NCBI RefSeq assembly: GCF_964355755.1
Contig: NC_092677.1
Coordinates: 24,601,175 to 24,665,174 of the forward strand
DNA from: Antedon mediterranea
Lineage: Eukaryota > Animalia > Echinodermata
Reading direction: 5' to 3'
Length of the DNA: 64,000 nt
Shown here: positions 1 to 45,167 of the stretch, one piece after another
Layout: every line of letters starts with the position of its first letter
How positions within the stretch are numbered: the first letter of the stretch is position 1
Position numbers and translations under genes: made by a program
Notes under the pieces: model-generated
Told to the model about the DNA's origin: nothing
The model's input: only the letters and a program-made list of their open reading frames with translations
Databases searched by the model: none

Positions 1-50
1 CCGACAGACCGACATAGTGAACTATAGAGTCGCTTCCACGCGACTAAAAA
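1..50 (-). mobile_element. Terminus of a Helentron-associated/DINE-1-like non-autonomous element (same family as 46255-47194)
   Basis: GACC/GACA microsatellite remnant followed by atagtgaactatagagtcgcttccacgcgactaaaaa, almost identical to 47150-47194. Contains a short hairpin (agtcgc...gcgact) next to an A/T-run. Confidence 0.6.
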
Positions 51-375
51 CCATTTATAATAACTTATAAATTACTTGAAAAATCCTGGCACGGTGATGA
101 ATCACTTCGAACATAAAGTCCCAGTGCCACTGGCAGAAATTGCTATTTTAATTAACTATGTGTATTTTTTTTCAATATTTATGTCTTTTTGTTATGTAGG
201 CGTTTTTTTCTTAAAATAGTATTGTAAATCTCATATAACAATAACGACATAATATTGTTATTGTCATTTAATACCAAATGTTGATAATGTTGATATCAAC
301 TAATTTTGATTATAATATCAATTCATATGGTGCAAATACAACAGCTCTTTTAAATGTATTTGTGTTTCTTTATAG

Positions 376-459
376 CATTGGTTGCTGTTCTCGTCGCTAT
401 TGTTGGCATCGCACTATATTATTACTATTTTGCCATTAACGTTTCTGACGACCATGAAG
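376..459 (+). CDS. Gene A cassette exon TM-1 (ALVAVLVAIVGIALYYYYFAINVSDDHE)
   Basis: Acceptor tttctttatag and donor G|gtaact; 84 nt, phase 1-1, open, hydrophobic. Confidence 0.7.
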
Positions 460-847
460 GTAACTATATTTATGATTATTTGTTTTAACTACATTTAAAA
501 AATGGAAAGGAGAAATCTAAATGATGAAAGTTTTTATTATGATAATAATAGAATCACCTGTACCATTACAGCTTTCGAATTGTTGCTTTCATTGCTCACT
601 TGACTAGATTTAAATCTATATTGACACATGTTTCTTTAACGTATATATATCATTCTCACATATATAGTTTTTTTTATAAATATTTAGGTCTTTTTGTAGG
701 CTATGTTTTCTTGAAATAGTAATGTAAATCTCTTATAACATACATCATTTAATACCAAATGTTGATATCAACTAATTTTGATTATAATATCAATTAATAT
801 GATGCAAATACAACAGCTCTTTTAAATGTATTTGTGTTTCTTTATAG

Positions 848-925
848 CATTGGTTGTTGTCGTCGCTATTGTTGGCATCGCACTATATTACTATTATCCT
901 GTCATTACCGTTTCTGATCATCAAG
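848..925 (+). CDS. Gene A cassette exon TM-2 (ALVVVVAIVGIALYYYYPVITVSDHQ)
   Basis: Same splice sites as copy 1; 78 nt, phase 1-1, open. Confidence 0.7.
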
Positions 926-1686
926 GTAACTATATTTATGATTATTTGTTGTAACTACATTTAAAAAATGGAAAGGAGAAATCTAGACTCTAAATGATGG
1001 AAGTTTTTATTATGATAATAAATAGAATCAAACAATATTTATATTATATAAGGCGGTATAGTTAGGAGTTAAATTTCTCTAGTTTATCTTCATCTATCCT
1101 GATTTATTCTCGTTTATCCTCGTCGCCAATTGTAATGTTTTATATCTCTCTTCGATATACACTTTATTAACTTTCCATGAAGGAAAATAAACCTTTGTTT
1201 TTTTATGACATCACATCCGCACAGCGCAAAGTTGCATGCGAGTTTACATTATTTTCCATATGCTGCTTATACGCATATATATGCTTGTAGAATGAATGAA
1301 AACAGATATTTAAAGGTTTTGTTTTTATTTTGCAAATGAAGAAACTGATGATGAAAACAAACAATTACCTAGTATATTGCCAAGTTAGTTGTATATTGTA
1401 TTTAGATCTGTTTAAAAAAATATTAATAAAAATAACATTTATAATAACCTATAAATTACTTGAAAAATTCTGGCACGGTGTTGAATCACTTCGAACATCA
1501 AGCCCCAGTGCCACTAGCAGAAATTGCTAATTTTATTTAACTATGTGTATTTTTTTGTTTTTTCAAATATTTATGTCTTTTTGTAGGCTATGTTTTATTA
1601 AAATAGTATTGTAAATCTCATATAACAGTAACGACATAATATTGTTATACATCATTTTAATACCAAATGTTGATATTGTTGATATC

Positions 1687-2191
1687 CATATGGATCTCCG
1701 ATTAAAAATTTCCTCACACTACACTAAAGCTTAAATAATAGTGGATATTATGATTTATACTTTAACTAAATCAGAGGAAAAAATTCCCGTCAAATTATGT
1801 TTTAAAACATCTACTTAATCAAACCGCTGATAGCGTAGAGGTCGAATTTTGGTCGTATTTTTGGTGAGGCCATTATCGTTACTCAAAGGGTACATGCAAA
1901 AGATTGCCTCCCATTACACAAAAGATGAATATTCATGTCATTTTTGTTCTGATTAGTTAAAAAAAAAACGTCAAAATTATGATTTGCATAACACTAAAAA
2001 TTCAACAATGCGCGCACATTTAGATGATTTGGAATCCACCATTATCGTGAATGGCTGAATGTGTTCGCAGAAATGATATTTGTTATTTTGTAGTGCTCAA
2101 TAACTTTATAATATAGATGAAAAACAAATTGTTTTAAATTGAATTAAATTGCACTGTTTGGTTGAAAATAAAGGGAACAGAGATCCATATG
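1687..2191. mobile_element. MITE with 12-bp terminal inverted repeat CATATGGATCTC
   Basis: catatggatctc at 1687-1698 and gagatccatatg at 2180-2191. It interrupts the duplicated intron sequence that is continuous in the copy at ~290-330. Confidence 0.6.
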
Positions 2192-2253
2192 ACTATCAAT
2201 TCATATGGTGCAAATACAACAGGTCTTTTAAATGTATTTGTGTTTTTTTATAG

Positions 2254-2316
2254 ATGTCGCTACTGTTGGCATTACACTATATAACCATTTTGCCAGTCAC
2301 GTTTCTGACCATAAAG
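2254..2316 (+). CDS. Gene A cassette exon copy 3, hydrophilic variant (DVATVGITLYNHFASHVSDHK)
   Basis: Acceptor ttttatag and donor G|gtaact; 63 nt, phase 1-1, open, but the hydrophobic core is shortened and more polar. Confidence 0.55.
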
Positions 2317-2733
2317 GTAACTATATTTATGATTATTTGTTGTAACTACATTTTAAAAATGGAAAGGAGAAATCTAGACTCTAAATGATGGAAGTTTTTA
2401 TTGTGATAATAATAGGATCACCTATACCATTAGAATTGTTGCTTTCATTGCTCACTTGACTAGATTTAAAACTATATTTACATGAAAAAACCCACAATTT
2501 TTGCACATGTTTCTTTAACATATATATATCATTCTCACAGATTGTTTTTTTTTTAATATTTAGGTCTTTTTGTAGGCTATATTTTCTTGAACTAGTATTG
2601 TAAATCTCATATAGCAAACATCATTTAATACTAAATGTTGATAATGTTGATATCAACTAATTTTGAATATAATATCAATTCATATGATGCAAACACAACA
2701 GATCTTTTTAAATGTATTTGTGTTTCTTTATAG

Positions 2734-2808
2734 TATTGGTTGCTGTTCTCGTCGCTATTGTTGGCATTGCACTATATTACTCTGCAATTAACGTTTCTGA
2801 TCATAAAG
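2734..2808 (+). CDS. Gene A cassette exon TM-4 (VLVAVLVAIVGIALYYSAINVSDHK)
   Basis: Same splice sites as the other copies; 75 nt, phase 1-1, open. Confidence 0.7.
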
Positions 2809-3216
2809 GTAACTAAATTTATGATTATTTTGTAAAACTACATTTAAAAAATGGAAAGGAGAAAATCTAGACTCTAAATGATGGAAGGTTTTATTATGAT
2901 ATTAAATAATAGAATCATCTATATATACCATTACAGCATTCGAATTGTTGTTTTTATTGCTCACTTATATCATCGTATATATCATTCTCAGATTTTCTTA
3001 TCTTTTCAAATTCTTTAATTAAACATTTCAGTATTTTACCGAGAAGTTTAGAATTCACAGACACAGAACAAATTCTAAACCGCCCGGTGATATACTGAAA
3101 ATGTACCGTATATACGATGTTGATTACAATGGCCTATAAGTTGCTGCTACATCTGTTGAAATATATGTTATATGAATTGAAACACCAAGTAATTTCTGAC
3201 ATTTTCATTACTACAG

Positions 3217-6200
3217 ATCAACTTGTGATGTTAAATGTGAGCTGTAAAGGTAGAACTCTCCATCTTAAAGATGAAGATATAAAGTTGGAGATACCATCTG
3301 GAGCAATTGAAGAAGGGAAAAAAGTTAAAATATCACTAGAAAATATTTGGGAGGAAATAGACATTCCTTTATCTCATCCTCTTAACTCATTAATATCACC
3401 CGTTGTTAAATGTGGACCAGAAGGCACTATCTTCAACAAGCCCTGTTTACTGTCATTTCCACACTATGCTAGAAATGAAGAGTTTTGGGAATTCACTCTA
3501 CTTGTTAAGGATCGCATTCAAGATAAGTGGAAACGAATAGCATTGAAAAGTAATGACACAGACATAAATTTTACTTTAAACAGCGGTCTATGTTGTGTAA
3601 CCTTAAATCATTTTTGTTTTTTTTCGTTTGTGGGTCGTTTAATAAATGTTGTACAAGGAAAGAAAAGTACAATATTACTGGTTTTTGGAAAGAGAATTGA
3701 GAATCATATATATCAACTTCAAATAAGACTTTGTGGATCCGGAGATAAAACGGTAATTATTAATTTCTTATTATTATTCTATTCTAAAAACAACAACAAC
3801 AATAATAATAATATGTTTTACCTGACAACAGATGATATGTTTTTGATTAAAGGATTGTGTGTCACATAAAATTCAATCGATTGAACTCATGCAACATCAA
3901 GAGTGCAATTTGATTTATGTATTTCAGAAAATATGTAAAGAGCATGAACGACATGAGGAGTACCTTGTACGAACACCTGTAGATATACTTACTTTGTATA
4001 AAGACATGAAAATTACTGTAGCAGTACCAAACCAGGAATGGAATGTTCAAGAGGAAGAACAAGTAAGAATATTTCTTAATATGAAAAATTGTATATAAAT
4101 CAATGCCAAAAGTAACATTCAAGTAGTGTAAGCTGTCTCACTGCGGGCCAAATTAAACATTTTGAAGGGTTTATAGTCTTGATTAAGATGGAAGCAGTGT
4201 GTTACTTGAATACATTTACTTTAGAACAGTTACTGTGTTATAATAAATAATAAGTTATTTGTGCCCTACATCTAGCAAAATAAAGAGAGAAAAGGAAAGA
4301 GAAAGTAGAAGAGAAACCATCATTATCTAGGCCATAACAGTTTCTTTGTAATGTGTGACTGACGTGTATCATCACAGCCGAATCGATACATGCTTTTATA
4401 TCATGGAGGAATTAATTTAGCTTATACTTTATTTTACATTTCTATACAATAGTTTTCATAATAATTAAGAAAGATAACTGACTTATTTAGTATTTATTAA
4501 TCTTTATGAATGTTCAGTGTGTTGTATATCACATTAGAGTCACCACTCCGGGGTGCGATTTTTTTTTTCGTACATAAGTTGGGGACCCCTCATGAAACGT
4601 CACAAAATAAACATGAATAATCAGTTAAATTTGTTGTTCCGTGTGCACCCAAGCGTATAGCAACAAGAAGTGATTACACAACTGCGATACGATACTTCTA
4701 CAGTGATTCTAAGTCAATTCACGTGATTGCCTTCGCGCCACTAAGGCGCAGGATTGGTCATAGCAATAAATAGCAAACAAATAGCTGTGTAAATGCTATA
4801 CCTGATACAGCAATAATAGCAATTAATCGACAGCTAGGCAAGACATTAAACTAAGTAGTAATTCATTGGACATAGCCCAAAGAAAGCTTAGACCCACAAG
4901 AATAAAGAATGTGTATAATTTGTGTACTGTATTTTTTTAATTCTGCTATTTTATTATCAAACAGTATGCATGTACTCAAAGGAACTTTAAAAATGCGCGT
5001 ATATGAACACATGAGATGGGAAGATTTGACCCACGAGAATAAAAAATGTATTTTTGTGTAATGTTTATTGTTTAATTTTGCTGACTTATTACTCGGATTG
5101 TGTCATACCAAAGATAGTGTAACTATCTCTGGTCATACCTAACACACACACACGTCACACACACCCACACAGCTACTACTAGAATAGACATGGGTTTAGA
5201 GAGTAAATTAGGCCGAATAGTATTAATAGAAACTATAATTTTAACACGTAATTCTTTAGTAATAAATTATATTAAAAACACCATAAACTAAAGGCTGATT
5301 ATTTCGACAATCCACACAAAACGCCGCTATTCTTCTATGACATTGCACGCCGCAACAACAGCGGAGATAGGCCTAGAATCGTACCGCACTTGTGTAATCA
5401 CTTCTTGTTGCTATACGCTTGGGTGCACACGGAACAAGAAAATTTAACTGATGAATTATTCATGTTTATTTTGTGACGTTTCATGAGGGGGTCCCCAACT
5501 TATGTACGAAAAAAAAAATCGCCTCCGGGGTATACAAAACAAATACACGTTTTTAAATTAGATGCCATACGAGCATCTCAGTCTTATTTTTTCCCAAAAA
5601 AATGTCCTACATTAGGCCTAACCTATTTTCTATTCATATTTATCCACATTCCACATTCTTACATAAAAAGTATATCGGAAAATAACATAAACATAAAATA
5701 CTCTCATTCATAAATATTTATATTTTTCCATCTAACTCTCTTGGTCTTATATATAAATAAATATAAATATATGTGGATAAACACTTGTTTAGTATGGTTT
5801 AAACAATGTTCACTTTGTTAGAATTAATGAGATAACATTGAAAAGGATGATTTGACCAATACAAATATTTAGGCCTTGACATCCATCTTCTAACCGTGAT
5901 ACTGTTGGTGTTATATGGCGTATTGACTGCTCCGACAATATATAAATGACACGATTGATTGTTAATAGTGGTTGGTATGGTGTTTATTTTGCAACCCTCA
6001 GTACAAATGGTGTTGACTCCGTTTTTCTCTCTCCCCTATTTATATTGACCTCTATCTGACCTTATGGTCTACTATTATTTTGGAGGGTTACAGTATCACA
6101 CACACACACCCACACGGGCACGAATCAAATAATTTAGCTTTAGGCCTACTTCTCTTTTAAATAAATGTTTTGAATAATGTGTCAATGAAAACTTTGACAC

Positions 6201-8727
6201 TTCTGATAAACAGTACACAAAACTGAAAGTTTTAACAGTCAGAAATTACAAAAAAATAAATTAACAAATATTATTTTGTTATTCACCAAAGTAGTCAGTC
6301 TAATCACATGCAGTACCTTACTTGAAGCTGTAAAACTTTTTGATATGAGTATGATTTCTCTTTTCTAGATTATTACAACTGACTATGTATGGTCTCAAAA
6401 CCCAGAAAAGACATATTATTTAGAAAGAAATAATTCATCAACAAATACGTTTTGGGCAACAGTATTACTGTCACAAGGAGATGCAAATGCTATTCCTAAT
6501 GTGCCAATTTGTTGTAAGTATAATTTTAAACAAGAATTTAAGAAGTACAAATTATGTAGCACATAAAGTCTACATTTTGATAAAATAAAATAATATGGTT
6601 TGAAAGAATCAAAACATGCATCCTAATTAATAACCAACAACGAATTGTCTATCTAAATTTAAAGAATTATTGTATTATAAATGTTTTTTGTTACAGGTGA
6701 TATTCGGAAATCAAATTCAAATCCAGGTAAATTAAAATATTATGGTAAGTATAGGTTAAGTTGAATTTTTTTTAGTTAGCAGCGTTTTTTTAAATACTTG
6801 AATCATAGTTACACACCTTATATAAAAGTTGCCTTTCCACAGCTACTAGTTTCTAAATTCCTTATTCAAATCGAATTAAAGGGACAGTTACAACTTTTAA
6901 ATACATAAACAAATATATTTTATATTTGTTATTAGTACCGCATTACCATATATATCACGACCTTAAGATCTAATTAGTTTGAAAGCCCAGCTCATTGAAC
7001 CAGAATTAAGTGTAGCACAGGTCAAATTTAGACAAATGCGCGCAATTTGGTGATGGCTTGACACAACGTTTTATACAGCATGTGACATCTATTCCAAGTA
7101 AATACTGTACTCAAAACAAGGTTTTAAACAGTGAAAGACAATGATGATGGATGAATTGATTCCACGTTAGAAATGGTTAGGGTTGATTGTGCCAGGTAAT
7201 GTAAACAATGCTTAACTGCTTAAAGTACTACTGCTCCAGTTCAGGTTTGCGTCAGCTATGAGCATTTCGAGCAAAAAGATTTCTGCATAGCCGCGTAGAG
7301 CTTGAAAAACGAAACATTGAGATTGAGATTTTATTTGCCAGAGCCGGACCGGAGCAGATGTGAAAGACACTTAACTGTTGTTTGCCATATTTAATTGTTA
7401 ATACTGATATTCATTTCAGATCAGCATTCACCAGAAAATGTCAGGTAAGTAGTTTAATGAGTAACCAATTCTGCCAGCATCAAAACTGTTTTATATATAC
7501 AGTAACTACATAAACTATGAAAGTTTATGACTTGGATAGTGGAGAATATGTTGGGAAAAAAACTATACTTAACAAGGCGGCAGCCTAGTTAAACATAGCC
7601 GTCTCCTTCAATGAATGAAATATTCTCCACCATCCAACTACGAATAGGCTACAAAACATTCATTATTTGCTTTTTAACACACCTGTTATGAATTACGTCA
7701 ACAACCAAAATATATTCCTAGGCCTAGCTAGCTAGGCTAAGCCTAGTGTAGAAAATAAGCGACGACAAAAATGCTAGGCAACTGAAACTGATCTACAGTG
7801 TTTTTTTCTAATGATTCCACGTCTTGGAGTTGTTCCCATTAATAAATTTAAAATATCATTGATTAAATAAATTAAAGAGCTTCAAATAGCCTAACCATAT
7901 ACAAAATAAAGCTAAATAATGTCCATGAAATAAGAATAAGATAAAGTAAGTTTATGTAATACTTTACATAATAACAATTTAGTTTAATTTGTATTTAAAT
8001 TTGAGGTGCAATCAATAGTTTAAATTCAAAATAAAACATTTAAAAATATTAATGTATTACCTCAGCCTTAACAAATGTGAATAGTCATCATTTGTAATTT
8101 CTAGAGAGATTTTAAATATCATTACTTATAGTTTTACTTATATCTTTATTTCTAGCTTGAAAAACGGGATACAGTCACTGTTTGCCAAAGGTAATTTAAC
8201 CTTTTATTTATTCTTCTTCTTCTTCTTTATTGTATCAAACAAAAACAATTTCAATACAAAAGGCAGCCAAGGTATAGCCGAAGCTAATCAAGCTTGGTAC
8301 CTTTTATCTTAACTAACTTAAGCTACAAAATTTATATATATATTAAATATATTATTTTATTTAAGTCCTGAGTATTAAAAAGATGTAAAACTTTATTTTA
8401 TATAAAATTGAGGAAATATATTCTTTTCTCTTAACATAATAACAAGTCCCTAATTTTATTTTGTAAATTCAACAATCACAAATAATATTATAAAAAAAAT
8501 AACTTTAGTTATTTTTAAATCTCATCAAAATTGAGACTTTAATGTGTTTTTTTTTTATTCCAGAAAACCGTGTTTTGATAATTTGTTTTATTGTGGTCAT
8601 AGTGTCTGCATTCTTAATATATATACTGCACGATACAGTAGCAACATTTTGCAGTAGCATAGTTTTGGCTTTATCTCTGGTTACATGTGGCTATCAAGTA
8701 TATAAAAAAATAAGAGGAATAGACTGA
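3217..8727 (+). CDS. Gene A core: ZU5-UPA (UNC5/PIDD/FIIND-like) protein with C-terminal two-helix membrane anchor; exons 3217-3752, 3928-4062, 6369-6513, 6697-6726, 7420-7444, 8156-8190, 8564-8727
   Basis: ZU5 motifs LEIPSGAI, ISPVVKCGPEGTIFNKPCLLSFPHY and LNHFCFF. All seven exons have AG/GT ends with matching phases (1/0,0/0,0/1,1/1,1/2,2/1,1/stop). The last exon encodes two hydrophobic helices (VLIICFIVVIVSAFLIYIL; FCSSIVLALSLVTCGY) followed by KKIR. Confidence 0.85.
4545..5531. mobile_element. Non-autonomous DNA transposon (MITE) with ~135-bp terminal inverted repeats in a gene A intron
   Basis: 4549-4680 (gcgatttttttttttcgtacataagttggggacccctcatgaaacg...gtgattacacaa) is the near-perfect reverse complement of 5390-5530. 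Confidence 0.8.
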
Positions 8728-13157: not shown

Positions 13158-16100
13158 ATGGCAAACACAGGTACGTTAGATCATAGAGATAGTTCACTAT
13201 AATATCTCTATGGTTAGATCTATTAATTAATCCATGATAAGACGTGTTGTCCTACTCTGATGTAATTGTACTTTGACCAATCAATCGAACAGGCTTGCAT
13301 TGCGCCTACGTCGTTGCGTTTTGTTGGGACAAGCTTAAAGCGTGGTTCCCACTAGCGACGCAACGCAAGGACGTAACGCAACGCAAGTGAATTCGTAAGC
13401 GATCACAAGCGATGGCTTATTCGCTTGTGATTACTTCGCTTGTCATTGGTTAAAACGCTTGCGTTGTGTTTACGTCCTTGCGTTACGTTCTAGTGGAACC
13501 ACGCTTAAGAAGACGGCGTAATTACGTCAAGGAGGGCACAGCATCTGGTCAAATTAATTAGCTCCTTGAAGCAAACCTACATCGCAATTATCGTCAACAT
13601 TAATGCATGACGAGGGTTCACATTCCCCCGACGCTAAAAGCAAAGCAAAACAATATGAAGAACATCAAACTACACTGTGGTATTCAAATGCGAAAATGTG
13701 CTTATATAATCTGGCTCCTCCGATGGCACCACTCCTGCTAAAACCTAATGGTGATGATAATGTTAATATTAGAGTAGAAACAGATAATGCGTCGATTGAG
13801 TAGTATTCCGTTAAAACACTTAATTTTACATTTTTATTTTACAACTTATACTTTCCAGCATTATCAAAAGAGGAATGTAGCCTATTGAAAAGTTCTGTGG
13901 CAAACTGGTTTGACCAACGTAATTTAATCAGTATGATCAAAGTTTTGTACGAAGAGTTGGTGACTAGTAAACAAGACTTACATAAATCTACTACAACGTT
14001 GGAATTGATCAACTTGGTAAATACTTATAAGGGATTTAGTCAAAATGATCCAAGTCTTTTACTTGCGACAATAAATGTTACTGGGCAACACGGCATATGG
14101 AACAAAATAGAAAAATTAAAATTACCTGAGCTACGTCAAACAAGAACAGTATCAATGTTCAGTGAATTCAGACAGAAGGTAATGAGGCTCGGATTAAAAA
14201 TGAAGGCTTGTGACGTAAAAAGGATAAGTCATTTGTATGAAGAAACAAAGTTTAGAAAGTATGAGGATAGCTGGAGTTTGATTATTGATCTTGAACATAA
14301 CGCCCACTTATCTAATAAAAACATGACGAGGTTCATTAGAACGTTAAGCGAGAATAGTCTCGGTCATTTAATATATACTATAGATGGCGGTATGTATTAC
14401 ATTTTATCCTGATATTGTTTATTTAAATACTATAACATTTAATTTACTAACCAGTATACCTATTTTCAAACAGTATTACATAATTAGATTCAAATTTAAC
14501 ATTTTGCTTGATTATTGATCTTAAACTTATCTTATGAAAACATGATAGAATTCATTGACATGTTAAGAATAAATACGCACTTTTTAATATGCGGAATGTA
14601 TTCAATTTTATCCTGATAATGGTTTATATATACTTTATACTATATAATTTACTTTACTAACCAGTATATCTAATTTCAATCAGTAGTATACGATAGAGTC
14701 AAATTCAATCCACCATTATTCACATATCCACAAAATACTGTTCAATTATTCGGAAGTAAACGAGAGATAATTTGAGCGTATTATCTAGTTTTAGTAATGA
14801 CTCTAGGTCAGGTCAATCGATGAGTCATCGGTCGTCGCCTGGACCATGGATGAAATAAGTATAATTTTGTTCATGCCTGGCCCTAGTAACCATCAAACCT
14901 GTGTCACGGTGGGGAGCGAGGACACATGTCCAATCTCCGCATGCGCATATTTCAACAATTAATTATCGTCGGTCGTGGCAAATCCAAAGCCCCCTAATGT
15001 TTCTTTACTTTGCTATATGATACAGGTGAACAACAAGTTGATATTGTTGAAAACAGAGACTTTGAATTACCAGGAACCGCAATAAAAAAAAAAGGTATGT
15101 AAATCAGTTTAGAAAAATCTGATTGATTTATTTTAATCTGGTCAAACAATTGTTGATATTATTCGATTGCATTGTGGATTTAAAAGCGGCACGAGGAATG
15201 GAGCTCTAAATAGATTAAATTAATCGAATATCTAAACAATTGACCATTAGTAGTAGTAAATACATTTGTCTACTACTGTATTTCCAATGCAATATTTAAG
15301 ATACAAGTGATTTACCTGCAAATTATTGACTTGTATGTGATCATGAATTGTAATACTGTACTTTCATATTATATATATAATATAGGCCTATATATAAACA
15401 AATTAGGCATAGAACATTAATTCCAAACCGCCCGGTAATATACTGAAATTTAATTAATTAATTTGAAACGATAAAGATGAGACTCGAACTCGGACCGCCT
15501 GCTTGATATGCAGATGTCCTAACCGTTAGACCACGGTATTGTTCGAACTCGATTGGATAGCGACTCTTTAACATTCTCGGCGTGGTACGGCCGGCGGAAC
15601 AGCAGCACTAGTCCTCAGTTGTACGCACGCGCACCAGAGATCAAATTGATACGCCCTCATCTTACAGTATTTTTATTTATTTTATATATACATATGTTAG
15701 TAATATATAAATTGTTTAAAATATTATATGAATCATGAGATGTGCTATTAACTGTAGAATGGCAAACAAATAACAAACAAAAAAATCTTGGTGATCTATA
15801 AATGTATAAATTGAAAAATAAAACAAAACTAGATAATTTGATGATTATCTCATTTTTTTTATAAGATCTTGTATTTTTGTATTCATGACTTTTTATATAT
15901 TTTTAATTAATTGTTTGAGAGCTTGTTAACGAAACGAAATTCCTTTTGGACCAATACATTTCTGTATTCTGTGTATTCTGTATTCTGTATTTGGCCTAAG
16001 TTTATAATGAAGAAAAGATATGCAATCATGAATTAGTATAAGGCATATAATATGATGTATGTTATATTTGTACATACATGTTTTATATATTCCCATACTT

Positions 16101-19100
16101 CAAAGAGTTTGGTTATGCTTTGTAACGTGTTACAAACCAAATACTGTAATTATGTAATTATGATGAATTCGATTAGATAATGTAGGCCTATATATATAAA
16201 AATCATAATGAATGAAGCAATTTTAATGATGATGAAATAAAAGTGGGAAACCCACAAAAGACAAAAAAAAAATACATTTGTCTGTTTAAACCAAAATAAA
16301 ACATGAAATTAAATTTAGTTGTTATTATCATGTATTATTATTCTTATTTTAACCATCAACATCAACTTCGTTTATCGAAGATAATCGGTTATTTTCTGTA
16401 TCGAATATTACTTTCTTAAAATTTACTTGAGTTGAATTAATATTCTTCTGACAACAAGAAAACTACTCACAGATACAATTAAGAAACAAACCCATGCATT
16501 ATAAACCAAAAGTCTAATTTGAGCCACGGCAGTGGCACTTTATTGGCCGCGAGAACTGTGACAGCCCCATGATTTGAACCCAGGACCTGGGATTAACAAG
16601 CAAGCTAATCAGACACTAAAGAATCAACAGATCAGAAACCTATATAGTTGGCTCTGTATTTCTTTTTTATACGTATGTTTTTGTGTCTTGTATTTTATAA
16701 TCATTTCCTCCTATAACAGTCAGTCTCATCTTTTATTAAATCAATTATACAGTAGGCCTACATCAAATGCAGTACAGTACACGGTTTTTGATGTTGTTAA
16801 GACATCAATATTAATATTGTGTTTCTTTATAGCATTGGTTGTTGCTGTTGTCATCGCTGTCATCGCTGTTGTCGTCATCACTTTCATCACTACTAGGCCT
16901 ATAGGAGGTGATGATTTATCTTTTTTTATGGTTAGGTTGAGGGTTAGGTTATGGTCTATCAATACTAGGTGATACACGTGAAACACATGTGATGCTATAT
17001 TCCAGAATTCAAATGACACTGGAGAAATTTAGATACAGTATCAAGAATCAGTTGCACGTAACGAGTAAAATCCATCTGTCATGATTAGGTTAGTCATAAT
17101 GGCATATGACCCAGGCATCACATGTGATACATATATGACATTAATTACAGAATTGTATAAAGTGATATTCATGAACAAATTATATACATAATGTATTAAG
17201 TACTGACATTTGGTAGGGAGAACGGTATGAGGGAAATAGTGAACCTCCAGGAAACCACTGTCTGGGGGTCAATGGGTTTTGATTAAATGTAATGTTTATT
17301 TTGTCGTAGGCCTATAATCATTCGTTTATTTAAATGATTTTCTAATTTGTTTGAGCAGTAATTATTTGTATTTTATTTGTCTTTTAACTTAAATGTAACT
17401 GTTTATTTTGACATTTTATAACAACATTATTATTTTTAAATATTACTTGTGTTTTGCCTACTATACTAAGTACTGTATTTTTTAATTTTTAATTTTATTT
17501 ATCTGTTAAATGTTAATTGAATTATAGGTCGACCAAATGCGCCAACAGTCACACTGTTGGAACAAAACCTCACTTCCATTACACTACGAATAGAAGACCC
17601 TGAATACACCGGTGATCTTGACCTAATTTTCTACAATATCAGCTTTAAATATGAAAGTAGGGGAAAGGATGTCGTTGATTTTAATATGTTTGATTACAGT
17701 AAGTCTTCATCAATTAAGTAAAATAAAACAACTATTGGTTGACATTGATAACCAAGGGCTGCACAGAAAATGTTGTTTATTTCTCCTTTTTTTATTATTC
17801 AATCAGAGGATAAAAATGACAAAGATTTTCAAATTTACACAATCAAAGAACTGTTATCAGAGAAACCATACAAAATCAGAGTGGCTGGCAAGAATAAATA
17901 TATGTTAGGATACCAAAGCGAAGAATTATACGCTAGAACACTAACAGAAGGTAAGTATCGTTATTTCATGAAGGATACATAACTTAAGATTTAAGTACAG
18001 CAATCCATTAGACTTAGGTACCATCAAAATGTCCACAAAAGTTGGTTAAACTGAGTTAAATATGGGTTGGTAATGTGGAAAAAAGACTTTCTGAATACCA
18101 AAAAGTTATCTATTGTGATCATTACATAGTTTGAAAAATATATATACACATATGTATTACCAACTGTCTGAAATGCGACATAGGCTGTACAGTAAGATCA
18201 AGAAAATGGTTCCTTTCCTGCCCTAAACTCTGTAAATTAAGAAATGGTCTAATCCGCCATGTATGAACACATAATGTAATACAGTAATAATAATATTGTG
18301 TAGACTAATAAACATTTATAACTGTTTAGTAATTCATTGTTAGATTCCAAACATTATTATAAAACATATGGACGGATTAAAATAAAATAATAAATTGTTA
18401 CTGTGAGCGTAGGTAGGGAGGATAAGGGAGAAAATCAAACTGTGTACGTCAATACTACTTAGTTAGGGAAAATCAGCACCAAACCTAGAAAAAATTATTT
18501 ACAAAGCGACTTTTATGGGAAAACCTTTATATGAATCTAAAATACCACCAAAAAAAAGTTCTAAGGATTTGGCCCATGGGAGACTTTTTTTGGCGTCATT
18601 TTCAAAATGGCCGCTTACAACTTGACATGCTTGTATCTTAGTAACCATTAATCATGGAGACTTGGTTTTGGTCTTAAATTGTTGAGAAGATACATATTCC
18701 TATTCTTCATAATGAAACATTTTGTCCAAAAGTGACCAGAAATGATATTTCTGACGTTTTGACCTTTGACCTCAGCTTATTATATCTCAATAACTACTGG
18801 TCGCATAATCTTCATATTGGTCTCAAATTGTTAAGAACATGTATGTTCCTATTTGGTATAATGGAGCATTATGTACAATTGTGACAAGAAGTATGGTTTT
18901 ATTAACTTTTAACCTTATATGTGAAAAGAGCACCAAACTTGAGAAAAAAATCACATTTTAAATGTTTTTGAGGGTGGGAGAGGGGATTATTCATCATGTA
19001 ATAACACCGAAACTTGGATATTGCTCCCAGTCGTTTACTTACTAAAGATTCCTTATTATTGGTAATAGTTTAAAATCCACATGTAATTATAGACGTACAA

Positions 19101-22100
19101 TGATATTATTTTTACCAAATAATCAACTTTCTTTAAAACATACACCGTCACTTAGACGAAAGCTGATGATTTTGTTGTTGTTGAGACTAGCCAGATTATT
19201 ACTGTGTCAGTAAAGCCTAGGTGTCTTCATCAGAAAAATGAATGAAAAGTTACATGAGCCATTTTCACATTCGTCTAATGTTGGGACTGGTGTTAGTTCA
19301 CCATTGATGTTTTTTCCAACCGTATTTGGTGGCATCAAAGACATGTACATCAATTTCATGATGTGCTAATTTCCTCCAGTCCAGTACTTGAAACCATACC
19401 CTCAATGAGTGCTGTAGGATGGCACCTTCAGTTGGAGAGTGACGCTCAATTGTTAAGCTACCCCTCGCTACCATTTTGGAGTACATACGTACTCTATGTT
19501 GTCATGTCTTCATCAGCACCATACATTAGTTGCATCAACGATGAGCATGTCAGCATCTGCTGAATAAGCATGGTAAACATTAATTCCATCCTCGGCTAAA
19601 GTCGATCATAATAAGTTAATTAGTTCTTGCTTATTTTTCAAATTTGAAAGAAACTGTGTCTTTTGGACAATACATCTTTGGTTTGTTGACACCTTATAAC
19701 TTGCACATTTAATCTTTGTTCTTCGTTTGTGTTCATGGTCTTTTATTGATGCATGTGTGTAAGTGTCAAAAATGACTTCTACTGTTCCTGCCTGGAAATT
19801 CTTTTTGATATAATTACTGTAGGATTTAATTATATCTAGGAATTTTGAATTTGGAGTCCATGGAGTCTGATGTATCAACCATCCTCCATCTATAACGTAC
19901 ACACACTGGCTGACTCAGATATGGTTTTGAGATAGTTCCCAAGTGACGCCTTGTCAGGCTTCTGTAAAAATTCAGAGGTATCATACAGGGATGTTGATAG
20001 AGGTGTCAGTTCATATTTTAATGTTTCACATAGTGAAAAGTTATCACGTTCACTGAGAAGGACAAGTCTTGTAAATAGGGTTGTATTGTTGACATAAGCA
20101 TTCTTTCCTCCAACTTTCACACATTTTTTACATGTAGACATGATAATGGTTTAATGTTTCGTGTAGACATTCTGTGATTCAGAGGTTTAGCATCTACTTG
20201 TTTCTGTATGGTGAGAGACCTATATTGTAGCAATTGTCACAATTTACTTCGTTGACGAATTCAGTGGATAAACCTGTCGACAGTGAAACGATGATTTTAC
20301 TGTGGATTCTGTGGATCTTCAAAACATTCATTGAACCAATTGAGTACTTGACCGAAGATAGATGTGTCAATTTTCATTGCACTTTGTGAGCATTCTTTGT
20401 GTGGCAGGTTTGGAGTGTTTCCTTTGTCTTCTAGTAGGTGATGGATCTCAGAAACATGATTCAAAGTCAGTACCCAAGGCAGGTATGTTGCTCCGCTTGT
20501 AGTTGAAGTACCCCTCATCCGGCCCATAGACAAACCGCCCTGTGATTTTGAATGTCTCATAAGGGTCTGTTCAATTGCTATGTCACTCCATACACCTGCC
20601 CATTGTTTTTCGTTATATCTGATGGTATGATCCCCATTGCAGAATATCGCCCATGTGGCAGGATCATCTTTTTTCAGCTGCAACATAGTCTGAAGGTATA
20701 TACTGCTGCCTTTGTCTAATGTGTGTTGCTTCTCTATACATAAACAAATATTCTATTTATGCTTACCAAAATTGCATTTGATATGCTGTTGCTGCACTCT
20801 TTCTAACAAACATTTGAAATGTATCCTGCTAGATGGCGCTTCCTGATTGGTCAAAAAGTTTAGCCTATGTACAGCCATGTGGTGGCGGTGTTAATACTTG
20901 AATTATATTATTAATAATAATTGAATAATATTGGTTAATTGGGTTCAACGGTCAATAAATGGTATTTCTACTTGCTTTATAGAAAAATGTGTCATTACTG
21001 CAAATATAAAGTTGTACATTATAAACAAATTAAGACCAAAACCCACTCTCTAGGTCAAATAGTTATGTAGCTATGAAACTTCCGGTCAAGAAAGGTCAAA
21101 GGTCAGAAATAGCATTGCTGGTAATTTTTTAGAAAAATATTCCATTATTGCAAATAGGAAATTGTACATTGCGAACAATTTGAGACTAAAATTAAGCATC
21201 TACACTGTGTGGTTAATGAAGTACTAACTCGTTACTAAAAATAGATTTGACCTTTATATAAAAGGTCATAACTCCTTCCCCCATAGAGAAAATCACTAGA
21301 ACTTTTTTTTGGTGACCCCTGGGACTTATATGTTAAGTTTGATGATAAAAATCCTTTGTAAATAATTTTTTCCAGGTTTGGTTAAAAAATGACGTTTTTA
21401 ACCCTAACTAACTACTTAGTTAACGCATTAGTGTTTTTCTACTTGACAACATTCTACAAACAAACGTATATTTTTTATTTGTTTGATAATTTAGATTCTA
21501 TATTATCTACATTAATACCTAATGTGACGTTTTCCATTCCATTCCATTTCTTAAATAAATCTAAAGTTTATTTTATATTTTTTTATATATATCATTTGCA
21601 TAATAAATATAAATGTATGGCTAATGTGCATATTATGTGGCATTTAGAAGATAATTAACATAGATATTTCAACAAGTAATGGGATGGAACCTTGGGAACT
21701 CCACAGAACAATGGGAATTAGATTTGAATCAAATTATTATTTTTTTTCTTATTGACCAAAGACCATTTATTGAACACTCATTAAACATTATACAATAAAC
21801 TTTAATTTCAATATCATGGTTACGTTATTAGTGGCAAAACAATCAATTAAAAAATATTTGTTTCTATTTTCTAATGTCATTTGTCATGTATGTTTATCTA
21901 TTTTTATTCAAAACAATGTTTTATAATAATACAAAAATCAATCTTCACCAATTACATATTAATTACGATTTTTTATACGACTCTGACATCATAATTCGAT
22001 AGTTTACAGAGTGAGATATTTAGATCGAAGGTTTTGGACAAAGAAAACGCAGATTGTGTTTTTTGCAATAGGCATGTTTATAATTGTTGATACTAGATGG

Positions 22101-25100
22101 TTCTCGAATAGGCCTACACAGTAATTTCAGCGTCAGTGTAAAAAAATGGCGATTTCAAATGTACGTACCGCAGGACTATATTACATGTCATTTACAGAAA
22201 CGAATAAATAGACACGATGATTTATGTAGTCAACTAAAATTAGCACCTTGGGAATTACTTCCAAAAGAGAAACTTGTCACAAAATTTGTCTGATTTGGAC
22301 TCAGTTAAACAAACCCAATTTGTGTTTTGTGTAACATTAGGGTTGAGGGATGGGGAAGAGGATGGGTACAAAGAAGAACAACTTTTAAATATATTCTTTA
22401 TCTAACGAAATATTTGTTCATCTTTGATAGGCCTATAAATAATATATCACTTGATACAGTAACACATTTGCGATTTAATACTTTGTTAAAACTGTCACTG
22501 TCATAGTCGATTGAAATAGCATAGTACATGTAACGATACACCACTACAACGTTTATATATTTGTAATTATTAATTAATAGTCCATGGGCCAGACATTTTT
22601 TTCGGTATCAAATTGGTGGCAAATGCTACCATACATTTTTGGAAAGCTTAATCTGTCTAATTTTCAGAAATCCATGATAGCAATGCCAATAGTACAGCTT
22701 AATAGTCATTTTTTAGGATTATATAACACCGCCTACGGAAAATATGCAACACAAAATTTTGCGGTAGGGGGTAACACTTTTCCTAATAACTCGGGATGTA
22801 ATGAACAGATTTGCATTTTCTTGGTATCAATATGCAGTGTATAGACTGCTAACGTGTAATATATTTTTCTAAGTAAATCCAACAATTATTGACACCATTA
22901 GAGGTCAGAAGGTCATTGAACTTTAATAAAAAATGATTTTTTTTCTAATATTAACTTATAACTTTCAGTTTTTAACAAAAAAAATACCATAGATGTTATG
23001 TAAACTGATGTTTTCATGAACATATAGACCCAATAAACAAGAAAATTGAAGTTAAAGATTAACAAAATATGAATATGCTGTGTATTATGAAGAAATTTGT
23101 TGTTTTTAGTAATTTGTAATCGTTTACAGTTATGGGGTAGGGGGTAACATTTTTGCGAATAACTTAAAATTTAGTTAACAGATTTGCATTTTCTTGCTAT
23201 CAGTATGTAGTGTATAGATTGCCTAATTGTAGTATACTAAATGAATCCCGCATTTATTGACATCTTTAGAGGTCAAAAGGTCACTGACCTTTAATAAAAA
23301 ATGCAATATTTTTCTAAATTAGCTTATAAATTTCAATTTTAAACACAAAAATACAAGATATCTTATGCAAACTAATGTTTTCTTAAACCTATAGACAGAA
23401 TAAATAAGAAAATTGAATTTAACATTTTTTCAAAATTGAATATGCTGTGCATTATAAAGAAACTTGTTCGTCATTAATAATCTTTGACAATAATGGGGTA
23501 GGGGGTAACATTTGTGCAAATAACTTAAGATTTAGTAAACAGATTTGCATTTTCATGTTATCATTATGTAGTGTATGGATTTCATTATTGTAATATACTT
23601 TTTAAAAATGAATCCAGCATCTATTGACGTCTTTAGAGGTCAAAGGGTCAATGACCTTCAATCAAAAATGCAATTTCTTCTAAATTAACTTATACATTTC
23701 AATGTATAAACGTTTTGAAAATAAGGCCTATGTCAGAATTCACATAATTTGAGTAATTGAATAGTTTGCGTTTTGTAATGTGATTTATGACACTTTAAAA
23801 TTAAGATACAAAGTTGTAAATTGGTATATCTAGGGTCAATTCCCACCATATAATGCAAATCTAAAATGGTAAGTAAGAACAATCAGAAAAGCTTATATTG
23901 TATATATGTATTGTTGAGGCACTTGTGGTTGCCTCAATAAAATATTAGACCATTTACTCTTTTCAACTGTGTCTGGCATGGCTTTAAAGTTGGTTACAGA
24001 CCAAAAATGGGCAAAAAAAGATTATATTTACAGTGACCTTTGACCTAGGCAACATTTATCCACCCACATAAAATTATTACCATTTTTGAACACATATCTG
24101 GTGTACCTCCGGACAAAATTCTGTTTTGGAGACTCATCTCCTATATGGTGTGACAATTTTGCCATTTTAAATGATCTACGGGGTATTTCGTTGTGGCATA
24201 ACTTCCTAAATACTAAATAGCATATTGCAACTATCCCCTTGATGCCCTAGAATGTTACCAAAATTAAAAGGTGCACCAGCTCGGCGCTAGTATCGGACTT
24301 CTGGTTTAGATGGGGATAGAGGACGAAATAGAGGAACATATTTTGGCGTAGTGCTATTATATTATAGATAAGTAAACTAGTCACTAACTCCGTGTCGATT
24401 ACTCACCTATAGAGATATTATAGTTCACTATAATATCTCTATTACTCACCCTAGCTGTTCCATATTGTGTACCGCCGCGATAGGTATATTCTACAACATT
24501 TTAGCAGGCCTTTACGATTGTTCCATTTCTCTCCTAGGAAGATATCATGAAGGGTTTTAAAACGAAATTATAGATTTCATCGGTAGATTTTTGAAACGCC
24601 AATTTCGGACCGCGCGTGAACGTAGTTAGCAAAATAAAAATTATACAGTACTGAAAATTTAATTAATTAATTAATTAATTAAATATGTTCATAAATCAAC
24701 GAAGTATATTGTGGGGAATAGTATATAAAAGTACATCGAGAGAACTGATGATAAGACCTTTTGTTTAAAATCGGTGAAACCCCGATAGCTGAGGTGTTGA
24801 ATTGAGTAAGCTGGAAGGTCTGTATACTGCGCGCTATTTGTGTCCCGTTAAGACCCTTGGATACTTCTGCCCATGTTGCAAGTCGTCTAAAACACTTAGG
24901 CCAAAACGGCCTACTGTGTCTTGGAAGTTAGTTTCACAAGATGTTTAAACTAAACAATGTATTTTATTATACCAATTAAGATGATATTTATTTGAATAAA
25001 CGCCCAACACCCCACACATATCGTCATCTCTTCAAGGTATGCCATTCGTTGAGCATTGAACTGCCTCATAAATATTGGGTATTCTATTGCGTTCCGCTAA

Positions 25101-28100
25101 ATTTCTTTATTGTGTGTATCGGTTTTCTTAAACTTTTTACAATTTCAACAATACCATCATGATAGGGCGTGAATGTCTTGGCTGTCGGTTTAAATTGTTT
25201 ACGATTTTCATGAGGAAGAGTAATTAAAAATGGGAAATACATTTGCATCACATTTAGGTATATTGAGCATTCATTAAACATATACATTAAACTAAATACA
25301 CTTCAATTTCAATATTATGCTGATGAAATTCGGATAAGGCCCTCCACGGTATAGTAGCCAGAAGTGCAGAACCTACCAGATCAGCACACCGGGTCCCGGA
25401 GACGATCCCTACGTTTTTCCATTTTTTTGTTTTACAATAATACGACAATTATTCTTTACCAATCACTATTAATTACGAGATTCTGACCTCATAATAAGAT
25501 AGTTTACAGATTGAGATATTGAGATCGAAGGCTTTGGACAAATCAAAGAAAATACAGATTGTATTTTTTTGCAATAAGCATATAGATATACAGCAAGGTA
25601 GTATGTCAACTGTAAAATGATACTAGGACTAATGATGTAAGGAAAATAATGGTTAACAATTATTTTTCTTTTCAGATGAAATTATCCGAAACTTTTTAAC
25701 AGCAGAACAGAAAAGGAAATTTAAAGATCCAAACAGGAAACCGCCGACGTGGGACACGTATTTTAGACATACATACAACATTTCACAGATGTTTACTGAT
25801 CTAATATTGAAACCAGAAATTTTGAAGAAGTATAAATACCTGGATTTAAAAATCGAAAGTCCTACATCATTAAAAGAACTATTATACTTTATCAGGTCCG
25901 TGGAATCATGTAAAGTATGCATGACAGGAGAAGGAGGGGTTGGTAAGACGACTTTACTTCAGTATATATCTTATAACTGGGCAATTGATTCAGATTCTAC
26001 GTTTGCCGGTAAAATATTATTTCTTATAAATGTACGAGATATCGAGGCAGGTAAAACAATTACAGATATGATTGTAGCGCAGGTTAGTATGAGTATTTTT
26101 TTTAAACATACTAATCTCCCGACAAATGAACTACTAATAGAAAGGTTTATACAGAAGTATGACAGGGAGTTAATTGTGTTGTTAGATGGATTAGATGAGT
26201 TGGAATATGGTGTCGTAGGGCCAAAACTGATGTTAGAAGGTAATGAACTGAGGGAAAGCATAGTTATTATGACATCACGACCGGGTTTTACGAAAGACTT
26301 ACTTATTCATTGCGATTTAGATGTAAAAGTAGAAGGGTTTTCTAAAAATAACATTGAGGAATATATTCAAAAATATTTTATACTTGTTGAAAACCCTGCG
26401 CTTGGTGATTCATTGATTGAAGAATTCAAACTTAATTCGGAATATACAAGTTCTTGGGGTGGCGATCACAAAAAAATATTTGAATTCCTGCAATCCCCTT
26501 TTTTATTACTTAAAATGTGCACCATATGGGACCATGAACAAATAATTCCTAAACATTTTGAACACTTTTTTATAGAAATTTTTCGATGCATTTTAAATCA
26601 GTACCTTAATAGGAACGGTACTTCTAAAGCAATTCCAAAATATCTTGACTTTCCCGACGAGTTTAACAATTCACTTCGAATATTAGGCAATATTAGTTAC
26701 ATAAAACTACAGACAAATTTACTTCATTTTTATAAAACGGATTTGATAAACCTAGCAGGAAATAACAGTTTAGTTGACTTATCTCTTAAATTAGGTTTTG
26801 TTTACAAAGACCCTCCATCTGAAAAAGATTCCTTTTTGGAGACTTATCGATGTCCACATAAGTTACTGGCAGAGGCCCTAGCAGGATTTTACTTGTCTTA
26901 TAAAAGTCAATTTGAAATTTTAAATTTTGACGAAAGTGAAGAAATAAGAACTAACACGTATCTACATATGACTAGAGTGTTTACAGTTAGTTTTCTAGGT
27001 CCCAACGCGGACAAACTTATGAAATACTGGTTGTTGAATAATGCTTCTCATTATTACTCATTTGCAAAATATTTCCAATATGTAAATAAAGAACACGAAA
27101 AAAGGGTATTAGAATCACTTGATGAGCACATAAACCAATCGAAAGAACTAACGATACAAGTCGAACGCTTAACGCGTTCCTTTACAGCGTTTTATAATTA
27201 CAATTTACACTTTATACAGCATTTGAAATTGTTACATGAAGAAGTAACAAAATCAGGTAGATATGTAATAGAAAATAAAATTATCGAATTGATAGAAAAA
27301 TCGACAAAAGAATCATCTGAAGATATTTGCAGGCTTGTAGCACACGTATTAATAATAATACAACAAAATAAGAATATAGGGATCGATGAATACGTTGAAT
27401 ACAGTGACTTATATTTACTGTATTTATTTAATAAATGGGGTGATACAGCTATTGAGATTCTCTCAAACGAGTGGAGAAGATGTCATTTAAATGAAGAAAT
27501 ACAGGAAATTAGTTTTTCTTACCCCATGTCCACGTTATTTCTTATTACTTATTTGAATGGCACACACTTATGTCATTTTTTTCAATCTTTTTCCAACCTT
27601 CGATTTCTCTACATGGACGACGGTGGTTATATATATAATGGTAAGCTTATTAAAGAAATTATAACCGAATGTAACAATAGTACAGTGTTTTCAGAATTAA
27701 CGGAGCTTGATCTCAGTCACAATGATTTAACAGATATAAATGGAACATTATTAAGTCACATAATTCATATTTCTAAAGATTTGAAAAGAATTAATTTAGA
27801 ATCTTGTAATTTAAATGGTACCCATATAAATAGTATGTTGAAAAAACATGAAGTAAAGTATCTGAAGTTAAAAAATATTACCATTCAATTAGAAGACAAT
27901 AACCTTTCAGATATTGATACAGATTCACTTGTAAAGCTGATAAACTTAGAAACATCCGGGTGGTTAAAATGGAAAAATTATAAACTATCAGCCAAGCACT
28001 TACAAGCTCTTCTGATTTCACATCAGAAGTACAGATTTATAAGAGTCATTCGTGTTGATTTGGATAATGTAGACCTATCGTCAATTAATGGAAGTATACT

Positions 28101-29133: not shown

Positions 29134-29846
29134 TAGGCATTTGTTGCTTTATTAAATTTGGAAAGGTGGTTATAATCTACAAGTTCTTCTAATTTCACCT
29201 CAAAAGTACAGATTTCTAAGAGTCGAGGGTGTTGATTTGAATAATCCAGACCTATCATCAATTAATGGAAGTATACTAGCTAACATTTGTTTTGTATTTC
29301 CAAAGTTAACCCATCTTTCTAAGATTGGATGCAATTTAGTAGGTACCATTATTACTGATATGCTAAATACATGTAGAGAAATGAATATTGAACTGAACGA
29401 GAATTCAATATCACTAATGAACAATAACATTTCTATTGATGGCGAATCGTTACTTAAATTATTGTGTTATAAGAAACGATGAATACAGATGCTCAGAAAC
29501 ATTAGAGTGGAGGAGATATAGTTTAACAGGTGGCAATCTTAAAGATATATTACAACGACCTAATAACAATGAATTAAAGTGGAAATATGTTGATTTAACG
29601 GATATAGATCTATCTTTAATTAGTGGTGTTACATTAGCGAAAATATTTAAATTATTTCCAAACTTAACTTATATAAGACTGAAAATATCAGACGATATTC
29701 AGCGAGAAATGTTGAAGGAATGCGTTAAACTCAGTGTTTCATTAGAAAATATCACAATTGATGTTTCATTTTCCTCTGGACAGTTCTGCCTTCAACGAGA
29801 GATAATTGAAAAAAAAGGACGTTTAATTTATACAAATTTGTTATAG
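29134..29846 (+). pseudogene. Frameshifted continuation of the gene B LRR region
   Basis: ORFs 29237-29482 and 29436-29846 continue the DLSSINGS..FP.L..L...C.L repeat in different frames. Confidence 0.7.
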
Positions 29847-42786: not shown

Positions 42787-43200
42787 TCCTTTGAGTTTGC
42801 AATTTGATCAGTTCTTGTTTAGTTAGGTTCAGCTTGTGCTGTTGTTCATAAGTTTTATGTTTGACTGTTTTATCTTTAGCTTTATCCTCATTTTCGTCAA
42901 ACAAATTATTCATTTCTGTTCCATTCATATCATCTAAACACTTAGTTTTATTTACTTTGTTGTCATTTACTACTGTTTTCAACAATTGTACATTAGTTTC
43001 TTTAGGCGGCTCTTCTATCGGCTTAAAGTTACTATCTTTCCCTAACAATATCATTTCGTCTTGTATTCTAACATCATTTTCTATTCTGGCTTGCTCCCTA
43101 GTTAGGACGAACATTTCTTTAGCCATTGTTTCCCCACAATTCTGGTCCAAATCATGACCCAATAACATATCCCTCTGTAATCCTTCGATTACGGCTACAA

Positions 43201-44643: not shown

Positions 44644-45167
44644 GCTAATAACAATTTTACTAATGAAATATGTAAACTTATGTATACAAAATATGTTATA
44701 AAAGTATGTGTATTACCTTGATTCCATTCAGATATGTAAAAATATTAAATCCACATAAATTTTTAAATGCAATACAATCTAAGACATTAATTTACTTCAA
44801 AGTCACAAACAACGTTCCAAGTTCGCTCCGTACAAAAATTTACTTTCGAAATAAATAATAGTTTACAAAGTCAGCTTTGCAAATCTTCTCCAAATTTACT
44901 GGGCTTCCTTCTGTTACTTCAGTCTTCTTCTTTCAGACCTCGGTGAATATATACAGTATCTCCGATGAATATCCAGCAGTCTTGAGCTCAACAGTACTTC
45001 TTCTTCGTTGTAATATCCAAACAACGCACGGTATAAAAACTGTCAGGAATCCAGATCTTCGTAACCATTTAACTTTTTGGTTACTGATTTAACAGGCCCG
45101 TAGAGTAGGCACTGTCACTTCTTCTTCTTCTTCTTCTTGATACTTAAATCATGTAAACAAAAATTTT

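Follow-up and report, generated by a model that had tools for sequence, protein, structure and literature searches.

The array of four short exons described here lies in a gene of the crinoid Antedon mediterranea whose product contains, in this order, DED-DED, a basic linker, the four array modules, ZU5-UPA, a linker and two C-terminal hydrophobic helices. The exons for the DEDs and the basic linker are located upstream of the window (the whole 64,000-nt stretch of DNA that was analysed) and are known from the RefSeq protein only. The RefSeq protein of A. mediterranea was identical over the ZU5 exon, and its protein cluster consisted of two isoforms, XP_071957969.1 (isoform X1, 662 aa) and XP_071957970.1 (isoform X2, 656 aa); no further 100%-identical protein of 313-2000 aa was present among the seven matches. 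When the 11 exons of the window were spliced in silico with all four copies included, the exact C-terminal 456 (X2) and 462 (X1) residues were obtained. The single difference between the isoforms was an 18-nt donor shift in the micro-exon 6697-6726/6744, and the 656-aa reading frame was intact along its full length. The exons, all on the plus strand, are as follows.

376-459, plus strand: anchor exon copy 1, 84 nt, phase 1-1; hydrophobic helix and acidic linker
848-925, plus strand: anchor exon copy 2, 78 nt, phase 1-1; hydrophobic helix
2254-2316, plus strand: anchor exon copy 3, 63 nt, phase 1-1; non-hydrophobic, predicted polar loop
2734-2808, plus strand: anchor exon copy 4, 75 nt, phase 1-1; hydrophobic helix
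3217-3752, plus strand: exon for ZU5 and the start of UPA, 536 nt; HFC is residues 432-434 of the RefSeq protein
3928-4062, plus strand: UPA exon; a contig of run X5 shows it spliced to the ZU5 exon
6369-6513, plus strand: UPA exon, spliced to exon 3928-4062 in the same contig of run X5
6697-6744, plus strand: micro-exon with two donors, ending at 6726 in isoform X2 and at 6744 in isoform X1
7420-7444, plus strand: linker micro-exon, 25 nt, placed by in-silico splicing against RefSeq
8156-8190, plus strand: linker micro-exon, 35 nt, placed by in-silico splicing against RefSeq
8564-8727, plus strand: last coding exon, with two hydrophobic helices (KD19 3.32 and 1.84), a basic tail and the stop

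The first-pass annotation of this DNA had described four open mini-exons of 84, 78, 63 and 75 nt, all of phase 1-1 and with preserved splice sites, and this description was confirmed; the sites are GT-AG. Each copy is preceded by TTTATAG and followed by GTAACT, and phase 1-1 is the sole open frame. The view that the exons encode helices, three of them hydrophobic and one decayed, and are joined to the ZU5-UPA exon was upheld by both RefSeq isoforms. The best 19-residue Kyte-Doolittle means of copies 1 to 4 were 2.23, 2.25, 0.32 and 2.21; the suspected loss of hydrophobicity in copy 3 is thus real (0.32 vs 2.21-2.25 in the other copies), and by this measure copy 3 is no helix.

The ZU5 domain in exon 3217-3752 was matched by Pfam PF00791 (E 1e-19), and ZU5-UPA resembled the UNC5B cytoplasmic region in sequence (E 6e-12) and in structure (Foldseek E 4e-20, rmsd 2.5). 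The predicted model also resembled the caspase-8/cFLIP tandem DED (Foldseek, probability 1.0, E 0.002). In the AlphaFold model (mean pLDDT 81), which allows no membrane placement, each array exon formed one helix with a pLDDT of 51-74. No P-loop (NACHT) was found in the focal protein; NACHT is present in neighbours such as P0010.

Three genes downstream each carry DED-DED, one hydrophobic exon and NACHT-LRR exons, with FN3 in two of the three. The second gene of the window (13858-29843) ends after FN3 in RefSeq (350 aa, XP_071959548.1); a NACHT-LRR frame of 1,150 codons with a frameshifted tail (25677-29130) is not joined to it in RefSeq, and transposon remnants lie between them. The third gene (35336-40247) has DED-DED, no FN3 and a NACHT-LRR split into several frames, and its hydrophobic exon at 36326 has no clear canonical donor. 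The LRR regions 27700-29130 and 38841-40247 contain long internal tandem duplications with units of the 'LSSINGSILAN' type, suggesting rapid repeat turnover. The third gene is followed on the minus strand (~40479-44712) by what we take, from its ORF content and motifs, to be a Gypsy-like LTR element. The fourth gene (49232-62455; XP_071959549.1, P0010) encodes an NLR built as DED-DED, one helix, (FN3) and NACHT-LRR, a build shared by P0011 and P0013. Its introns contain two LINE-like reverse-transcriptase remnants on opposite strands (53859-55906 and 57932-59498; labelled from ORF content). An element of ~1 kb at 4548-5529, which has long terminal inverted repeats that are 93-95% complementary and was high-copy in the mapped runs, is presumably a non-autonomous DNA transposon.

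Duplication, divergence and origin of the anchor exons

The array consists of four repeated units of ~470 bp, which can be grouped into two pair units.

46-1030, plus strand: first pair unit, copies 1 and 2 with introns
1430-2960, plus strand: second pair unit, copies 3 and 4 with introns and an insertion
1687-2191, strand not assigned: 505-nt insertion bounded by 12-bp terminal inverted repeats, in the intron that precedes copy 3; probably MITE-like

The block 46-160 recurred only at 1430-1545 (91% identity), and an intron indel of 19-21 nt grouped copies 1 and 3 against copies 2 and 4. Both observations agree with the earlier proposal that a pair arose first and was then duplicated as a pair. 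Informative sites numbered six for 1+3 against 2+4, three for 1+2 against 3+4, and one for 1+4 against 2+3, and intron identities among the copies were all 87-94%, suggesting that the rounds of duplication were close in time or that the copies were partly homogenised. An assembly artefact was considered as the source of the array and rejected, since contigs of the DNA-like runs X1 and X4 bridged 982-1314, 1285-1627 (run X1), 2441-2662 and 2738-3085 with 0 differences; these runs are possibly the assembled sample and hence non-independent.

The first-pass annotation had contrasted the preserved frame and splice sites of the exons with the free accumulation of indels in the introns, and had proposed that exon and intron indel sizes be compared. 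When they were compared among the copies, all of the minimal indel events in exons (5/5) were multiples of three, vs 4/12 (alignment gaps) or 1/12 (hand tally, pairwise gaps) in the flanking introns (Fisher P 0.02 to 0.001). Left out of the intron count were the 505-nt insertion and two gaps at unit ends, of 111 and 54 nt (each a multiple of three); with these gaps kept, the count became 6/14. This part of the contrast stood, and the in-frame bias suggests that the exons are translated. The splice-site part did not stand: at the private substitution rate measured in introns, the chance of keeping all 16 AG/GT letters was 0.62, so that in copies this young the retention is not beyond chance. 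The chance of finding no stop codons at this divergence was likewise ~0.6.

These values bear on the possibility that the gene is a young, weakly constrained chimera drifting to loss, in which the instability of an immune cluster would have produced the array neutrally and slippage in codon runs the in-frame indels. The two chances of ~0.6 fit such a history, as does the fact that four of the five exon indels were one-codon slips in triplet-like runs; the 15-nt deletion, however, is in frame too. In pairs involving copies 2 and 3, pN was near the intron divergence (0.10-0.24), as drift would predict, whereas copies 1 and 4 differed by pN 0.04 vs pS 0.16 (small numbers). Frameshifted NLR genes in the neighbourhood and the lack of an orthologue with the focal domain order among 179 proteins also favour it, but the intact 656-aa frame and the spliced RNA found in another sample speak against it. 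Taken together, we regard drift to loss as improbable.

Copy 3 carries a 5' deletion of 15 nt and five private substitutions, all five of which are non-synonymous. The five private changes compare with 2.5 expected from its own introns (P 0.11; P 0.03 against the mean rate), and neither a decay significantly faster than that of its introns nor positive selection is shown by these sequence counts.

A single-copy relative of the array exons was found in the neighbouring gene.

16833-16907, plus strand: sister anchor exon, present once in the adjacent DED-DED-TM-FN3 gene; 75 nt, phase 1-1

This exon shared 84% DNA identity over 50 nt with the acceptor and the 5' end of copy 2, and is likely to represent the donor lineage of the array. 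Since the single-copy sister exon already has 75 nt and phase 1-1, the symmetry of the array exons appears to have been inherited. Among human neighbouring exons of high similarity, the same symmetric phase was found in 108 of 118 cases, according to the accessible text of PMC3632108. The anchor exon of the fourth gene (56134-56194) has 61 nt and phase 0-1, vs phase 1-1 in the second gene, and tandem duplication would thus be tolerable in one sub-lineage only.

The DED exons of the focal gene and the next gene were 93% identical, and the focal ZU5 was 60-65% identical to those of six Antedon paralogues that have no N-terminal helix. The order DED-TM-TM-TM-ZU5-TM occurred in two of the 179 proteins compared, which are the two isoforms themselves. 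Of the 7,995 candidates scored in a homologue search with residues 1-300, the protein itself was the only one returned. When 21 crinoid NLR matches were scored, five had one helix before NACHT, 16 had none, and none had more than one.

From these comparisons we infer that the focal gene is a young chimera, formed by a recent fusion that was followed by an increase of the anchor exon from one to two to four. The 5' half (DED-DED, basic linker and one type II anchor exon) would have come from the neighbouring DED-TM-(FN3)-NACHT cluster, and the 3' half (ZU5-UPA and the two-helix tail) from the UNC5CL-like family of Antedon. Copies of an anchor exon that was already symmetric (phase 1-1) would have been tolerated, and frameshifts would have been purged if every copy was read in every transcript. 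The ZU5-UPA family is itself expanded in Antedon (P0001, P0003-P0007, P0009, P0043 and P0044), with shuffled death-fold, tail-anchor and Roc/COR-like partners, and in most members ZU5 still ends in HF[S/T/C].

Probable inclusion of the four exons in mRNA

In both RefSeq isoforms (2/2), all four anchor exons are joined in tandem. These models resolve micro-exons of 25-35 nt and an 18-nt alternative donor, which suggests that they rest on RNA-seq; as predictions restricted to well-supported isoforms, they would miss rare skipping. We conclude that the four copies are probably all spliced into one mRNA and give a predicted three-helix anchor in which copy 3 is a polar loop, with no switch selected by splicing. 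The splice-controlled switch proposed in the first-pass annotation was therefore not supported, since both isoforms carry all four copies and none of the usual mechanisms of exclusion was found. The choice between anchored and soluble forms that was part of that proposal also fell away, as exon 8564-8727 leaves two hydrophobic helices in all 16 skip combinations.

A contig of run X5 was spliced over 3479-3751, 3927-4062 and 6369-6513, with 4, 0 and 10 differences, indicating that the focal gene, a close allele or a paralogue is transcribed. Run X5 is taken as RNA by guess, though this one contig is spliced, and the mapping was made on positions 1-8300 with four of the seven runs, short of the last coding exon. 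Among the joints listed from the contig mapping, there was no junction that linked two array exons or joined the array with ZU5. Run X5 gave no cover in the bins 555-831 and 1386-1662. If only exons were covered, the implied depths were ~5.7 for copy 1 and ~6.6 for copy 2 (both after subtracting other contigs), 6.07 for copy 3, and 6.14 and 5.98 for the two halves of copy 4, with 11.6 for the downstream contig. These depths fit one contig containing all four copies but are not counted as evidence, because contig depth cannot rank gene parts and the copies can cross-map at 87% likeness. Copies 1 and 4 have 33 identical bases in common.

Mutually exclusive exon (MXE) clusters typically arise from adjacent homologous exons that are alike in length and frame, as the four copies are, and the ancestor had one such exon, so that using one copy at a time would preserve its topology. 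Members of an MXE cluster are unjoined in transcript models, whereas both isoforms here join all four. The introns after copies 1 to 4 (388, 1328, 417 and 408 nt) have near-identical GT-AG sites and the exon lengths are all multiples of three; thus none of a steric block (donor to branch point <50 nt; judged from intron length), a U2/U12 mismatch or frameshift-dependent NMD was found. These mechanism criteria follow the accessible text of PMC5740500, according to which many validated human MXE clusters also lack classic cis mechanisms, so that the absence of such devices is supporting rather than decisive. In a duplex test made against the last intron only (the upstream intron lies mostly beyond the window), 13, 19, 11 and 1 of 30 shuffles were as stable as the regions upstream of copies 1 to 4, i.e. 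three of the four regions were at shuffle level and that of copy 4 was at 1 of 30. The C-terminal helices would be kept whichever copy was chosen. A strict mutually exclusive choice as in Dscam exon 17, in which use of copy 3 would leave the protein with no N-terminal anchor, is considered very unlikely.

A milder alternative is that the all-four mRNA is the main form and that single cassettes are modestly skipped, by regulation or as noise, giving minority proteins with two helices instead of three and with ZU5-UPA on the opposite membrane face. All 16 skip combinations are in frame, with 0-3 helices before ZU5, and the copies have identical splice sites with none privileged, which makes stochastic skipping plausible. 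The skipping of helix exons is predicted to invert the topology of tetraspanin isoforms, according to the accessible text of PMC6773723, which also warns that such topology predictions can fail. However, neither RefSeq isoform skips an exon, even though the 18-nt donor shift was resolved in the same gene, and no regulatory element was found. Modest skipping is rated as unlikely, albeit the least unlikely of the alternatives to constitutive inclusion.

The frame bias, the intact splice sites and the absence of stop codons do not separate alternative from constitutive use. A frameshift would be more harmful if every copy were present in every transcript, and constitutive inclusion predicts in-frame indels no less strongly than alternative use does.

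Predicted topology and comparison with known systems

The positive-inside rule is the established basis for predicting the side of a membrane protein segment. Four K/R are present within 15 residues before helix 1, the loop after helix 1 has no K/R, and the flanks of the C-terminal hairpin have 3, 0 and 3 K/R. With the four K/R before helix 1, the tandem DEDs would be cytosolic and the loop after helix 1 outside; helix 2 would return, copy 3 would form a polar loop of 25 residues, and helix 4 would cross the membrane again. Simple start-stop counting of helices 1, 2 and 4 would place ZU5-UPA on the same side as the cargo that follows the helix in the one-helix ancestor, in the lumen or outside. 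Six sequons were present in ZU5-UPA and the linker, vs 2.6 expected and 0-4 in paralogues, and those at N307, N413 and N545 are private, i.e. missing in four aligned paralogues. The helix count and these three private sequons favour the lumen, while the charges of the tail favour a cytosolic ZU5-UPA. Against the lumen also stand paralogue P0044, which combines ZU5-UPA with a similar tail, and other paralogues, which join a death-fold region to ZU5 with no helix between. To our knowledge, all characterised ZU5-UPA modules are cytosolic. We give the lumen or outside about an even chance, the cytosol a somewhat lower one, and a mixed arrangement a small one.

The protein may act as a membrane-tethered death-fold adaptor whose DEDs could recruit DED partners such as caspase-8-like proteins. 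The ZU5 end motif is HFC in the focal protein, and HFS, HFT or HFC at the homologous place in relatives. Cys may serve as the nucleophile there. ZU5 is possibly self-cleaving at HF|C, in which case both halves would stay membrane-bound. PIDD is cleaved at HF/S, and UNC5CL combines a membrane anchor with retained self-cleavage (accessible text of PMC3210808 and of the review PMC10084454, respectively).

The further proposal of the first-pass annotation, that helix parity could decide the side of ZU5-UPA, is logically sound but conjectural. In its fullest version, regulated skipping would move a self-cleaving ZU5-UPA from cytosol to lumen or back, with the tandem DEDs cytosolic throughout, so that the protein would be an adaptor inside and a sensor outside, and copy 3 would have been selected to lose its helix, thereby setting the default parity. 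We consider this version doubtful, with only a small chance of being right. Selection to regain an odd helix count may conceivably have removed the copy 3 helix. A flip of ZU5-UPA by skipping, if real, would make a rare designed topology switch.

If constitutive inclusion of all four copies is the true reading, the gene would be a clear and recent case of a multi-pass membrane anchor made by copying one helix exon, and a young immune chimera with a domain order found in no other protein examined. The array is a natural test of how a protein responds to duplication that alters helix parity.

In the one-helix NLRs (P0010, P0011 and P0013), basic residues precede the helix, which would make NACHT-LRR face the lumen or outside. 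In NACHT, the five single-helix NLRs had 27 sequons vs 19.1 expected, and 15 helix-less NLRs had 33 vs 47.0 (P0023 and P0025 left out). This mild excess is a lead only, as it is driven by two close paralogues and the third NACHT of the window had 2 vs 3.9; it echoes the extracellular NACHT of AjNLR-new. The data point to a crinoid clade of DED-TM-(FN3)-NACHT-LRR receptors that have a single helix between DED and NACHT; such a clade is relevant to the extracellular NACHT reported from the sea cucumber.

Like UNC5CL (ZUD), UNC5, PIDD1 and NLRP1/CARD8, the focal protein has death folds in the same chain as ZU5, which ends in an HF motif with a candidate nucleophile. ZU5 is followed by UPA as in the UNC5CL/PIDD type, and a membrane helix directly precedes ZU5-UPA as in UNC5CL-type proteins. 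Unlike the UNC5CL/PIDD type, it has no C-terminal death domain; a linker leads from UPA to two hydrophobic helices. It further differs from UNC5CL-type proteins in that its death folds are N-terminal tandem DEDs ahead of the anchor, in its three helices instead of one, in Cys for Ser at the motif, and in that its ZU5-UPA may be non-cytosolic.

The sea cucumber proteins AjNLRC4 and AjNLR-new are likewise echinoderm immune proteins with transmembrane helices between normally cytosolic modules, and the NACHT of AjNLR-new is reported to be outside; neither an exon array nor a splice switch is mentioned for them in the accessible parts of these sources (PMC8699970, PMC13133943). The focal gene, in contrast, encodes neither a NACHT nor an Ig domain. 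A literature search that reached few subscription papers found no report of the focal gene or of a crinoid anchor-exon array.

As in Drosophila Dscam1 exon 17, which comprises two mutually exclusive transmembrane exons, the focal exons are tandemly duplicated with a helix per exon. According to the accessible text of PMC1397879, each Dscam1 transcript contains one of the two variants and insects share the pair as a conserved feature, whereas the annotated transcripts of the focal gene use all four copies. Moreover, intron identity among the focal copies is 87-94%, and the array was found in no relative. The array also resembles the constitutive tandem duplicates of symmetric exons, which are adjacent similar exons of one symmetric phase (accessible text of PMC3632108), and differs from them in that its module is a membrane helix, so that copy number alters topology as well as length.
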